Shown: piece after piece, positions 21,393 through 22,307 of the stretch | How the letters are laid out: each line of letters opens with the position of its first letter | How positions within the stretch are numbered: position 1 is the first letter of the stretch | From: Escherichia phage vB_EcoM_LNA2 | Strand: one strand, 5' to 3' | Sequence record: MZ311865.1 | DNA length: 64,000 bases | Program-made: the position numbers and the translations under genes | Notes under the pieces: generated by a model | Seen by the model: the letters and a program-made list of their open reading frames with translations, nothing else | Database searches by the model: none | What the model was told of the DNA's origin: nothing

Positions 21393-21440
21393 TGCCTTGC
21401 GGCAACCTTGTCGGGTTTCCACCTACTAGGTAAGTGTTTG

Positions 21441-21465
21441 TACGAAACGCCGGGATTCGAACCCG
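21441..21465 (-). pseudogene. tRNA 3'-half remnant (T-arm plus acceptor strand only)
   Basis: Minus strand reads CCGGG-TTCGAAT-CCCGG-CGTTTCG, a canonical T-arm and 3' acceptor strand, but no anticodon or D arm can be folded upstream. Confidence 0.3.
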
Positions 21466-21701
21466 GTTATTAAGCAGTTGACGCTACTCAATATTTTTAA
21501 AAGGCCATATCTCGACCATATCCGAACGTTCCGTCAAAAACGCTACTCGGCTTACGGCAAAGATATTTCCTCGAATCGATAATTCTGTGCGCCGTTTCTG
21601 CTGTGATGTAAGGGGGTATTAACAAATCGTAAAGATTTATTAAGACCAGTCCTTACTCAGGGAACATCAGTCCGACGTCTTGCCGGTAGCGACCCGGCTT
21701 C

Positions 21702-22046
21702 TTATTTTGGCATATCATCAATTTGCTCTCGACGCCGACGCCATAGATTAATCGCTTCATAAACACATTCAGCATTTGGTATATGGCGACAATAGTATAG
21801 TGATTCGCGTTTCTGGAACCGATGTTGTAATGGAATTTCGTTTAAAAGGTCTTTACGGTCAAAGTATTCAAAACTAGTTAACCCGGAACGGTTTTTAAGA
21901 AACTTCCAATGTCCGAATTCATTTTGAAAATAAACGTAATCAGCGTGTTGATATAACGAATTAATCAACCGGTCGGAAATAACTGTATCCTGTTCGTTAA
22001 AATAAAACGTTAAATCATGAACTACCAAATAAATATTGCCTTTCAT
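21702..22046 (-). CDS. hypothetical protein (114 aa) inside the tRNA region
   Basis: Track ORF 21702..22094 would overlap tRNA-Arg; the internal ATG at 22046 preceded by GAGGAAAA (MKGNIYLVVHDL...) is preferred. Confidence 0.45.
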   Translation of the reverse strand: MKGNIYLVVHDLTFYFNEQDTVISDRLINSLYQHADYVYFQNEFGHWKFLKNRSGLTSFEYFDRKDLLNEIPLQHRFQKRESLYYCRHIPNAECVYEAINLWRRRREQIDDMPK

Positions 22047-22064
22047 ATTTTCCTCACTTGAAGT

Positions 22065-22141
22065 TGGTCGAGACAGAAGGATTCTAACCTTCAACCTACG
22101 GATTAGAAGTCCGTTGCTCTATACAATTGAGCTATGCCTCG
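22065..22141 (-). tRNA. tRNA-Arg (anticodon TCT)
   Basis: Hand-folded cloverleaf on the minus strand: acceptor CGAGGCA/TGTCTCG, D-stem GCTC/GAGC, anticodon stem ACGGA/TCCGT with loop CTTCTAA, T-arm GAAGG-TTAGAAT-CCTTC, encoded CCA. Confidence 0.8.
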
Positions 22142-22144
22142 GAT

Positions 22145-22219
22145 TGGTGACCCTGGCTGGTTTCGATCCAGCTACCTATCAGTTATGAGCTGACAGCTCT
22201 CCCATTGAGCTACAGGGCC
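22145..22219 (-). tRNA. tRNA with CAT anticodon (Met, or Ile2 if C34 is modified as in T4)
   Basis: Hand-folded cloverleaf: acceptor GGCCCTG/CAGGGTC, D-stem GCTC/GAGC, anticodon stem GTCAG/CTGAT with loop CTCATAA, T-stem GCTGG/CCAGC, encoded CCA; 3 nt from tRNA-Arg. Confidence 0.75.
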
Positions 22220-22281
22220 TTAATAACTTTCTATTATGAAAGGCACTTTAGAGCACCTTTGGTAATAGAGGGTATGAATTA

Positions 22282-22307
22282 ATAATAACACATAATTCTT
22301 AAAGCAA
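22282..22307 (-). promoter_or_regulatory. MotA-dependent middle promoter candidate upstream of the tRNA cluster
   Basis: Minus strand TTTGCTTTA (MotA box), 12-bp spacer, TATTAT -10; about 55 nt upstream of the first tRNA. Confidence 0.5.

Follow-up and report, generated by a model that had tools for sequence, protein, structure and literature searches.

The tRNA cluster of Escherichia phage vB_EcoM_LNA2 (MZ311865.1) raises a simple question: what is a perfectly formed T arm and acceptor 3' strand doing beside two intact tRNA genes, when neither a D arm nor an anticodon arm can be folded to go with it? An earlier note on this DNA had offered a decayed tRNA or a tRNA-like processing element, and had pointed to the T4 RNA C and D species. 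From an analysis of the window (the whole stretch of 64,000 nucleotides), we conclude with a probability of roughly 0.9 that positions 21362-22309 on the minus strand are the RB69-type version of the classical T4 tRNA/stable-RNA operon, and that the supposed remnant is part of rnaC, a small stable RNA known in T4 since the 1970s. The processing-element reading and the pointer to T4 thus went in the right direction, the element being rnaC itself. The cluster as such is nothing new, its operon type being already known.

All features of the operon lie on the minus strand and form a single transcription unit of the T4 type, in the order middle promoter, tRNA(CAU), tRNA-Arg(UCU), a 114-aa open reading frame (ORF), rnaD, rnaC and terminator. 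Because a 1051-bp block here is 95-99% identical to many published RB69/JS09-type phages, these features are not chance matches. RB69 itself (NC_004928) has the same order, with RB69ORF151c, a tRNA-Met with anticodon CAU, tRNA-Arg UCU and RB69ORF150c followed by an unannotated gap; that gap contains rnaC and rnaD, and our rnaC covariance model scores 156.3 bits within it. The two phages differ in that the CAU tRNA of RB69, which was published with two tRNAs (PMC1524935), is the T4 tRNA-Ile allele and that of the window a different one (54 of 75 positions identical), in two extra G residues in the RB69 record of an otherwise identical tRNA-Arg, and in the ORF downstream of the operon, which encodes 208 aa in the window and is RB69ORF149c in RB69. 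Compared with T4, the block from rnaD through rnaC to the terminator is 91% identical, against 74-83% for the flanking coding DNA. In T4 tRNA-Arg directly precedes rnaD, whereas in the window the 114-aa ORF lies between them; the T2L region (trna.1, trna.2) carries an ORF of the same family after tRNA-Arg and before the species II RNA (PMC2330249, Brok-Volchanskaya et al. 2008), but T2 retains about ten tRNAs and the window only two. The contrast drawn earlier with the eight tRNAs and stable RNAs of T4 therefore holds for the missing tRNAs and fails for the stable RNAs, since both rnaC and rnaD are present.

The two tRNAs are unambiguous. ARAGORN and the Rfam tRNA model both recover tRNA(CAU) at 22145..22219 (-; called tRNA-Met(cat) by ARAGORN, 59.4 bits) and tRNA-Arg(UCU), which decodes AGA, at 22065..22141 (-; 71.1 bits), each with an encoded CCA end. 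A count of only two intact tRNAs had been proposed by eye, and ARAGORN found none besides tRNA-Arg(tct) and tRNA-Met(cat) in the whole 64 kb; nor did any Rfam family other than tRNA reach its gathering score anywhere in the window. Despite its label, the CAU tRNA is, on sequence grounds, most likely of the tRNA-Ile2 type, decoding AUA after lysidine modification, and not a methionine tRNA. Its positions C4-G69, C5-G68 and G27.U43 resemble E. coli ileX at what we take to be the identity determinants. With T4 tRNA-Ile it has in common GGCCCUG, the 5' strand of the acceptor stem, and the greater part of the D arm, in a local alignment that covers the first 48 nt only (39 identical), and T4 tRNA-Ile is likewise labelled Met by ARAGORN. 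Among 5426 E. coli genomes, the only blastn relatives are accessory tRNA-Ile(CAT) genes at 75% identity, and CAU tRNAs of T4-like phages, RB69 included, have been described as bearing IleRS and lysidine signatures (PMC1524935). The tRNA-Arg matches that of phage Kha5h at all 77 positions, that of T2 at 62 of 77 and that of T4 at 44 of 77. The codons AGA and AUA occur at 6.7 and 11.6 per 1000, respectively, in the 76 ORFs of the window; the two tRNAs would allow AGA to be read and also AUA, the latter once host TilS has introduced lysidine.

Middle promoters that depend on MotA combine a MotA box of consensus (a/t)(a/t)(a/t)TGCTT(t/c)A with a -10 element TAnnnT some 12 bp further downstream. 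A regular-expression scan places a MotA box, ATTTGCTTTA, at 22300..22309 (-), and 12 nt past it (N12) stands the -10 element TATTAT at 22282..22287 (-). This is the middle promoter of the tRNA/stable-RNA operon: the stretch 22309..22282 fits the MotA-box/-10 consensus of T4 middle promoters, so that dependence on MotA/AsiA is predicted, and ATTTGCTTTA-N12-TATTAT is nearly identical to the T4 sequence ATATGCTTTAAGAATTATTTGTTATTAT upstream of tRNA-Gln. The MotA-box promoter that had been noticed ahead of the first tRNA is thereby confirmed and homologous to that of T4, where a middle promoter has been placed just upstream of the tRNA cluster (PMC2330249, citing Broida and Abelson). The -10 element ends 62 nt ahead of the first tRNA, and transcription is predicted to start near 22275, for a leader of about 55 nt. 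Across the window, the loose pattern TGCTTYA-N11-13-TANNNT, which keeps the TGCTTYA core of the MotA box without its three A/T positions, occurs 9 times against 1.83 expected, a count reached in none of 100 shuffles. Between promoter and first tRNA, a 5'-leader hairpin, AAAGGUGC-UCUAAA-GUGCCUUU, can be read from the sequence at 22239..22260 (-), and the T4 leader can likewise form a hairpin at the corresponding position.

Host RNA polymerase modified by MotA/AsiA, together with read-through from upstream, would produce one precursor ending after rnaC. Host RNase P, guided by the acceptor/T-arm minihelix, would then cut the two tRNAs and rnaC at their 5' ends, and other host RNases would finish the RNA ends. 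Cleavage of rnaC by RNase P was reportedly described in work of the 1970s-80s, and is otherwise suggested by the shape of the RNA. In T4, transcripts begun at the middle promoter run through the cluster and stop after the species I RNA (PMC2330249). At the corresponding place the window has an intrinsic terminator at 21362..21391 (-), a GC-rich hairpin AGCCCC-UU-CC-GAAA-GG-UU-GGGGCU followed by the U tract UUUUUUG; a simple terminator scanner missed 21391..21362 because of its internal U.U mismatches, and in phages Kha5h and G4507 the homologous site carries a terminator annotation. The 3' trailer that separates it from rnaC (21394..21437, -; fold energy z=-4.6) forms two small hairpins at 21437..21420 and 21403..21394, the first of which keeps its pairing with G-C in T4 and A-U in the window.

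The 114-aa ORF at 21702..22046 (-), identified by ORF call and profile match, is of the RB69ORF150c or T2L 'trna.2' type (phrog_3355) and begins with ATG. It is a real ORF lying, as had been reported, exactly 18 nt past the CCA end of tRNA-Arg, with a GAGG Shine-Dalgarno sequence at 22055..22052, and its stop codon and the 5' end of rnaD overlap. The phrog_3355 profile, which represents a family without an assigned function, matches residues 1-113 of 114 with E=1.9e-50. The protein shares 108 of 114 residues with RB69ORF150c and 79 of 116 with the ORF that follows tRNA-Arg in T2 and G4507; the published primer #24 for T2L trna.2 encodes KGNVYLVVH (PMC2330249). Its close homologs fall into only seven clusters. 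A Pfam search gave no match above cut-off, and a PDB structure search with the AlphaFold2 model of the protein (pLDDT 77) gave none at E<=0.001, while the matches of this model in a viral structure library are confined to uncharacterised proteins of T4-like phages.

The stretch that follows, 21586..21705 (-), is a homolog of rnaD, the species 2 RNA, with 104 of 119 bases identical to T4 rnaD (NC_000866 71053..71171). Its 5' hairpin is invariant and its basal stem, which contains internal loops, is conserved, while the apical region varies; relative to T4, hairpin, stem and internal loops are all unchanged in the window, whereas the apical region has diverged and the 3' end reads CACA in the window and CACC(A) in T4. 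The 5' end, which overlaps the ORF stop codon here, follows tRNA-Arg in T4. The fold energy is z=-4.1, a consensus fold of 8 sequences has compensatory change in 10 of 32 pairs, and the spacer between rnaD and rnaC is 6 nt, as in T4. Klebsiella phages carry a divergent rnaD, so that its "absence" by blastn beyond T4-like Escherichia phages is partly wrong.

The last gene of the operon is the rnaC homolog (species 1 RNA), a tRNA-like stable RNA at 21441..21579 (-) that is identical to T4 rnaC at 137 of 139 positions. T4 rnaC (NC_000866 70908..71046) lies on the same strand, likewise after rnaD and before the terminator, and has the same tRNA-like 3' end; the two substitutions place C for U in the long arm and G for A in hairpin 2 of the window sequence. 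The T4 RefSeq annotates rnaC, rnaD and tRNA-Arg as adjacent genes and describes rnaC as a small stable RNA, and the ends given for the window were transferred from that annotation. T4 RNAC has been validated by Northern blot and classed, along with RNAD, as late (PMC9697503). The window sequence is 100% identical to the annotated rnaC of RB3, RB10 and Aplg8, has a fold energy of z=-4.55, and scores 156.8 bits with the rnaC covariance model, which also scores true tRNAs weakly, up to 19.8 bits. At 98.6% identity to T4, against 74-83% for the neighbouring coding DNA, rnaC is by this measure under stronger constraint than the genes that flank it.

Comparison across phages establishes a tRNA-shaped four-way junction as the predicted fold of rnaC. 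The acceptor stem pairs a 5' strand CGAUUCG (nt 2-8, 21572..21578, -) with a 3' strand CGUUUCG (nt 131-137, 21443..21449, -), after which U and A (21442-21441) form the 3' end as carried over from T4. These 7 bp include two U.U mismatches, which become U-A pairs in Pectobacterium phage PM2, and the third pair changes from A-U to G-C in other genera. In the place of a D arm stands a long arm, H1 (nt 9-78, 21502..21571, -), with five helical segments and compensatory change in 17 of its 21 model pairs. Hairpin H2 (nt 87-112, 21468..21493, -), whose 10-bp stem shows compensatory change in 9 of 10 pairs, occupies the place of a class II variable arm; a single base separates it from the T arm, CCGGG-UUCGAAU-CCCGG (nt 114-130, 21450..21466, -), which is evident both in the sequence and in the minimum-free-energy fold, and whose middle pair changes from G-C to U-A in other genera. 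The perfect T arm and acceptor 3' strand that the earlier note had placed at 21441-21465 are therefore present, with positions that agree within one base. A U-CCA is encoded at the 3' end of rnaC in the Klebsiella-phage and PM2 versions.

The larger rnaC alignments were made by fitting sequences to the model, a procedure biased towards the nested helices that it contains (the kissing pairs described below lie outside it); with this bias, 22 distinct sequences from at least 9 phage genera have 93.0% of cells paired, against 37-48% in slid controls, and compensatory changes in 30 of 49 pairs, values that none of 500 shuffles reach. RNAalifold applied to an unbiased MAFFT alignment also returns the four-way junction, with 25 of 43 pairs compensatory. 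Beyond these helices, we propose a 6-bp contact between the apical loops of H1 (UUGACG, nt 43-48, 21532..21537, -) and H2 (CGUCAA, nt 97-102, 21478..21483, -), which are complementary and would, if paired, lock the body in a closed, nuclease-resistant shape. The motif UUGACG/CGUCAA is unchanged in 18 of the 22 sequences; three Klebsiella phages have UUGGCG/CGCCAA, in which one A-U pair is replaced by G-C, and PM2 keeps only GACG/CGUC, or four of the six pairs. A metagenome contig adds one further example of the Klebsiella type. The proposal thus rests on one lineage-specific double substitution together with strict conservation.

With canonical and class II tRNAs (RF00005, RF01852), rnaC shares the 7-bp acceptor stem, the 5-bp T stem and the UUCGAAU loop; the four-way junction; a long hairpin directly 5' of the T arm that resembles a class II variable arm; and, in some lineages, an encoded N-CCA. 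Unlike tRNAs, it has neither D arm nor anticodon arm, having instead an irregular arm of 70 nt and a linker of 10 nt, and its acceptor stem carries two conserved U.U mismatches. An acceptor/T-arm module set on a non-tRNA body is also found in the tRNA-like domain of tmRNA, in YrlA Y RNAs, in mascRNA and in the tRNA-like structures of plant viruses, and in such mimics it borrows the enzymes of tRNA processing. Unlike tmRNA, rnaC has no tag reading frame, and unlike YrlA Y RNAs it lacks a Ro-binding stem formed by the termini; to our knowledge, none of those families has two arms locked together loop to loop. A comparison of the Rfam tRNA-mimic families with the window returned no match, and neither a permissive Rfam threshold over 21250-22400 nor the gathering threshold over the whole window revealed a family for rnaC or rnaD.

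How else might the tRNA-like end be read? That it is the remnant of a tRNA gene which decayed as the tRNA cluster of this lineage shrank would agree with the failure to draw a D or anticodon arm, with the lack of a call by ARAGORN or the Rfam tRNA model, and with a lineage that has far fewer tRNAs than T4. The same 139-nt element, however, is also annotated, as rnaC, in T4 with its full set of eight tRNAs, and T4 RNAC is visible on Northern blots (PMC9697503). Because constraint on the element exceeds that on the flanking genes, and because compensatory changes preserve its pairs throughout at least nine genera, the element is not decayed, and a remnant is barely conceivable. A working class II-like tRNA in the 3' 94 nt of rnaC (about 21441-21534), such as tRNA-Lys(UUU) or tRNA-Met(CAU), is annotated in some GenBank records, and ARAGORN does call a 94-nt tRNA-Lys(ttt) in the rnaC of G4507 and a 95-nt tRNA-Met(cat) in that of PG7; in the window, an internal stem ACGGAAC/GUUUCGU can be drawn and the Rfam tRNA-Sec model gives 16.6 bits at 21442-21534, although with E=3.7 and against a gathering score of 47. 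Yet ARAGORN makes no call on rnaC in the window or in T4, and no covariation supports the internal acceptor helix, which is equalled in 500 of 500 shuffles and has one pair broken in 13 of the 22 sequences and another in 8. This helix also competes with the helix 38-41/50-53, in which all four pairs covary, and the putative anticodon, which lies within the variable linker, differs among phages. A valid type II tRNA in 21441-21532, named beforehand as one finding that would overturn the earlier reading, is thus absent from the window, and we consider a working tRNA here highly improbable.

Many deposited genomes annotate hypothetical proteins in this region, and 21441-21705 does contain short ORFs, for example one of 42 aa at 21497..21625 (-), with coding sequences annotated there in NHEP29, T2 PV648363 and Clarke_MM3. 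These ORFs straddle the rnaD/rnaC boundary, however, and lack conservation from one genus to the next; substitutions come in pairs across helices, the sequence tolerates indels of 1-2 nt, and the T4 annotation defines the products as RNAs, so that small proteins are scarcely credible here. A less remote alternative, but still an improbable one, is that rnaC serves only in cis as a processing and stability handle, its released RNA having no function of its own: a tRNA-like end would recruit RNase P and block 3' exonucleases for the operon transcript, the required acceptor/T-arm minihelix is present, and in T4-, RB69- and VR7-type phages rnaC does stand at the 3' end of the operon before the terminator. 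Against such a handle, rnaC lies inside the tRNA array, with tRNA-Gly directly downstream, in Karam-, Moon- and Gelderland-type phages and in Erwinia phage COW86c, and Dhakaviruses hold rnaD and the terminator without rnaC. For RNase P an acceptor stem and T arm suffice, yet strong constraint also applies to the long arm, to H2 and to both loops. T4 RNAC can be detected on a Northern blot (PMC9697503), and the T4 annotation is the source that describes it as a stable species.

No function has been assigned to rnaC or rnaD in reviews and papers of 2010, 2022 and 2025. Our best guess, offered as a conjecture, is that rnaC acts in trans as a stable tRNA mimic engaging a tRNA-binding factor of the host or phage. 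Such a role fits the case of VR7, in which rnaC and rnaD are retained and the flanking tRNAs are gone, as well as the single-nucleotide change in rnaD that emerged convergently during adaptation of a T4-like phage to a semi-permissive E. coli host (PMC12685909). That rnaC is a genuinely functional mimic, more than a by-product of processing and possibly a decoy or sponge late in infection, is a tentative idea that we hold to be on the unlikely side. Were it true, rnaC might be charged or bound by a host tRNA-handling protein; the U-CCA encoded in the Klebsiella and Pectobacterium versions, with the loop-loop lock, could permit CCA-tailing by such a protein, and late in infection the RNA may soak up a defence nuclease that targets tRNAs, or else a translation or stress factor. 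One specific candidate was set aside: the linker CUUUUAA mimics the anticodon loop of tRNA-Lys, as a decoy for PrrC might, but it is unconserved beyond T4- and RB69-type phages and the idea is unsupported.

The two RNAs occur independently of each other and of tRNAs, and about 750 phage records contain rnaC. A scan of 185,579 prokaryotic genomes for rnaC gave zero matches, and scans of IMG/VR and metagenomes added almost no new diversity; many IMG/VR matches to a looser rnaC pattern failed the covariance model and are attributed to chance. Both RNAs are among the oldest phage small RNAs without known function, and the covariation-backed fold, the proposed loop-loop contact, the encoded CCA and the independent occurrence lead to specific experiments on what they do. 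For annotation, the "remnant" should read rnaC and the stretch before it rnaD. Both are unannotated in the RB69 reference record and in most deposited relatives, and many other records mislabel them as hypothetical proteins, tRNA-Lys, tRNA-Met, tRNA-Phe or "tRNA-OTHER".

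Every feature of the locus lies on the minus strand. A MotA-box promoter, recognized by its sequence pattern (ATTTGCTTTA-N12-TATTAT, 22309..22282), precedes a CAT-anticodon tRNA gene (22219..22145; 59.4 bits against the Rfam tRNA model) and tRNA-Arg(tct) (22141..22065; 71.1 bits), the only two tRNA genes that ARAGORN finds in the whole 64-kb window; besides tRNA, no Rfam family reaches its gathering score there. An ORF of 114 amino acids with an ATG start and a GAGG ribosome-binding site (22046..21702) begins 18 nt past the tRNA-Arg CCA end and terminates in a stop codon overlapping the 5' end of a homolog of T4 species 2 RNA (rnaD; 21705..21586, 104/119 identical to T4 in pairwise alignment). 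A homolog of T4 species 1 RNA (rnaC; 21579..21441, 137/139 identical) follows, then a trailer containing two small hairpins and, after it, a strong intrinsic terminator (21391..21362), which is annotated at the homologous place in phages Kha5h and G4507. What the earlier note had observed from the sequence, namely two tRNAs, the ORF and its 18-nt spacing, the upstream MotA box, and an isolated T arm with acceptor strand (CCGGG-UUCGAAU-CCCGG at 21466..21450 and CGUUUCG at 21449..21443), is confirmed, and its coordinate 21441 is the exact 3' end of rnaC. Its interpretation is supported in part.

Neither the cluster nor its two stable RNAs are new: they correspond to the two-tRNA layout of RB69 and to the T4 species 1 and 2 RNAs. 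The 1051-bp block shares 95-99% identity with many RB69/JS09-type (Mosigvirus-like) Escherichia phages; RB69, reported with two tRNAs in 2006 (PMC1524935), has the same gene order, with RB69ORF151c, tRNA-Met(CAU), tRNA-Arg(UCU), RB69ORF150c and then an unannotated gap. The T4 RefSeq record places rnaC (139 nt), rnaD (119 nt) and tRNA-Arg next to one another in this region. Between the ORF and the next gene lie 346 bp of non-coding DNA, which share about 92% identity with T4, and rnaC matches the annotated rnaC genes of RB3, RB10 and Aplg8 at 100%; the stable RNAs are therefore present, and the contrast with T4's 'eight tRNAs plus stable RNAs' holds only for the tRNAs. Northern blotting has validated T4 RNAC, and both RNAs have been classed as late (PMC9697503); sources from 2010, 2022 and 2025 give their function as unknown. 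Annotation of the two is uneven: they are unlabelled in the RB69 reference record (NC_004928, about 73991-74419; 2306-2734 of the fetched region), 'hypothetical protein' CDSs cover them in NHEP29 (3226-3354), T2 (PV648363; 1575-1703 and 1709-1846) and Clarke_MM3 (1407-1653), and other records label the 3' two-thirds of rnaC tRNA-Phe or tRNA-OTHER.

Homologs of rnaC were collected from T4-type phages (T4, T2, G4507), RB69, the Gaprivervirus VR7, Karamvirus, Kanagawavirus and Moonvirus, and also from a Proteus Gelderlandvirus, Klebsiella Marfavirus-type phages, the Mosugukvirus PM2 of Pectobacterium, Edwardsiella PEi20, Erwinia COW86c and Citrobacter Ursula. From a plain MAFFT alignment of ten of them, RNAalifold returned a four-way junction with compensatory change in 25 of 43 pairs, and a covariance model built from that alignment gave exactly one strong match per rnaC-bearing phage. 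Across 22 distinct sequences, standard pairs fill 93.0% of pair cells, as against 37-48% after shifting the partners by 1-3 columns, and 30 of 49 pairs show compensatory change, values reached by none of 500 shuffles. In T4 numbering, the fold comprises an acceptor stem (nt 2-8 with 131-137) carrying two conserved U.U mismatches (U-A pairs in PM2); an irregular long arm, H1 (nt 9-78), replacing the D arm; a linker of about 10 nt with a conserved AAAAU at its 3' end; a hairpin, H2 (nt 87-112), whose 10-bp stem stops one base short of the T arm; and a canonical T arm (nt 114-130). Nucleotide 1 is U or A, the A pairing with a U after the acceptor strand to give an 8-bp stem of the tRNA-His kind, and the 3' tail reads U-ACA in phages of the T4 and RB69 types, with U-CCA encoded instead in the copies from Klebsiella phages and PM2. 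The Kanagawavirus IME523 type carries UGCAUGC in place of the T loop UUCGAAU on an intact T stem (fetched regions L008:1617-1633 and L053), and the role of rnaC therefore does not strictly need a canonical T loop.

The earlier note had read the isolated T arm and acceptor strand, which stand without foldable anticodon or D arms, as consistent with a decayed tRNA or a tRNA-like processing element. They belong to rnaC and its covarying helices; identity to T4 rises from 74-83% in flanking coding DNA to 91% in the rnaD-rnaC-terminator block and 98.6% in rnaC, and this excess over the flanking genes, with the compensatory changes, rules decay out. A class II tRNA of 94-95 nt within the 3' two-thirds of rnaC, which the earlier note had set against its own reading at 21441-21532, has annotation in its favor, with ARAGORN calling a 94-nt tRNA-Lys(ttt) on G4507 rnaC (L005:1546-1639) and a 95-nt tRNA-Met(cat) on PG7 rnaC (L004:1546-1640), labels that the GenBank records of these phages also carry. 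However, this fold requires an internal acceptor helix, ACGGAAC/GUUUCGU, that shows no covariation (500 of 500 shuffles do equally well), has one pair broken in 13 of the 22 sequences and competes with a helix in which all four pairs covary, and its supposed anticodon sits in the variable linker; we reject it on these grounds. The internal stem is fully pairable in T4- and RB69-type phages and PG7 and is not conserved more widely; in those lineages it might form as an alternative conformer of rnaC, perhaps after cleavage of the long arm.

Within the four-way junction of rnaC, the H1 apical loop UUGACG is perfectly complementary to the H2 loop CGUCAA. Both are unchanged in 18 of 22 sequences; three Klebsiella phages and one further metagenome contig have UUGGCG/CGCCAA, an A-U to G-C double change that keeps the predicted pair, and PM2 keeps only GACG/CGUC of the complementarity. 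These pairs lay outside the model used for alignment. We propose a kissing contact between the loops as suggestive, short of proof, because its support is one evolutionary event plus strict conservation.

Eight rnaD sequences share an invariant 5' hairpin (ACCGG-GUCGCUA-CCGGU), basal stem and internal loops; the apical ~50 nt vary and are replaced in T2, G4507 and LQ5, and compensatory change is seen in 10 of the 32 predicted pairs. Either RNA can occur without the other. In the Dhakaviruses MX01 and LQ5, rnaD and the downstream terminator region are kept (about 1500-1620 of the fetched regions), and rnaC was not found even with covariance-model filters off; the MX01 region has no annotated tRNAs, and the LQ5 record carries no annotation. 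Karam-, Moon- and Kanagawa-type phages have rnaC, with rnaD undetected by blastn. VR7 keeps both RNAs (rnaD 405-521, rnaC 529-669 of its fetched region) flanked immediately by a protein gene on either side; the ~1.3 kb fetched has no annotated tRNA. In Karamvirus, Moonvirus, Proteus Gelderlandvirus and Erwinia COW86c, rnaC lies inside a tRNA array with tRNA-Gly immediately downstream, and it is likewise among tRNA genes in PM2 and Ursula. In Klebsiella phages of the Marfavirus type, a divergent rnaD follows directly on tRNA-Asn (L059:971-1118, L060:1003-1150, L061:871-1018), ~385 nt upstream of rnaC, with the core AAGUCGUCGAACUGACGUUCCCUG ... AUCACAGCUUGAAGCGGCGCA conserved, a larger insert replacing the 5' hairpin, and a CAT-anticodon tRNA annotated tRNA-Met between the two RNAs. 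A search of 185,579 prokaryotic species genomes with a signature pattern of H2 loop, T arm and acceptor strand gave no match. In the literature searched, which did not extend to the primary papers of the 1970s-80s, we found neither the covarying four-way junction, the kissing loops and the encoded CCA of rnaC nor the independent distribution of the two RNAs.

The tRNA-Arg(UCU) is identical to that of Kha5h and matches the T4 allele at 44/77 positions. The RB69 RefSeq copy (79 nt; L062:1864-1942) has two extra G in its anticodon stem (AACGGGGACUUCU vs AACGGACUUCU in the window), either a sequencing error of an old record or a real variant distorting that stem. The CAU tRNA represents a separate allele: it matches the T4-Ile/RB69 allele at 54/75 positions and shares with it the GGCCCUG acceptor strand and most of the D arm. 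Relative to RB69 (L062:1784-1858), its anticodon stem and T arm are replaced, and because the flanks are near-identical, the tRNA has been exchanged as a cassette inside the operon. The 2006 paper on RB69 states that IleRS/lysidine signatures are present in the CAU tRNAs of T4-like phages (PMC1524935). ARAGORN labels T4's known tRNA-Ile 'Met' as well, and a blastn search of 5426 E. coli genomes found relatives of the CAU tRNA only among accessory tRNA-Ile(CAT) genes. AGA and AUA, rare codons in E. coli, occur at 6.7 and 11.6 per 1000 codons across 76 long ORFs of the window, and the pair of tRNAs that remains plausibly covers the two codons that the host serves least well.

The 114-aa ORF is a member of phrog_3355 (no function annotated), with seven close homolog clusters only and no Pfam domain. 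It is identical at 108/114 positions to RB69ORF150c and at 79/116 to the ORF following tRNA-Arg in T2 and G4507, which in T2L is 'trna.2' (PMC2330249). Its AlphaFold2 model (pLDDT 77) resembles uncharacterised T4-like phage proteins and has no neighbours in the PDB.

Gene order, promoter and terminator sequences, T4 homology and the conserved fold are direct observations, from which a working scheme may be drawn. In T4, a middle promoter upstream of the cluster yields a precursor spanning the whole cluster and ending after species I RNA (PMC2330249). From such a precursor, RNase P would free both tRNAs and rnaC at their 5' ends by way of the acceptor/T-arm minihelix; the CAU tRNA, once lysidine-modified, would decode AUA; and rnaC would persist as a stable tRNA mimic, its body locked by the loop-loop contact, and may act in trans on a tRNA-binding partner. 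A host-interaction role for rnaD is hinted at by a convergent rnaD SNP that arose during adaptation of a T4-like phage to a semi-permissive host (2025; PMC12685909).

In the first trailer hairpin (21420-21437), a G-C pair of T4 is A-U in the window's alignment with T4, and since this double change keeps the pairing it suggests that the 3' trailer structure of rnaC is also under selection. A looser MotA core pattern matches the window nine times, where chance predicts 1.83; minus-strand matches lie at 58986-59014, 36511-36539, 7298-7323 and 44409-44434, among others, two of the further minus-strand sites meet the full consensus, and these are probably other middle promoters. Downstream of the terminator, where RB69 has ORF149c, the window carries a 208-aa ORF (20692-21318, minus strand) of phrog_2280 (no function annotated), with a Pro/Lys/Ala-rich, low-complexity middle.
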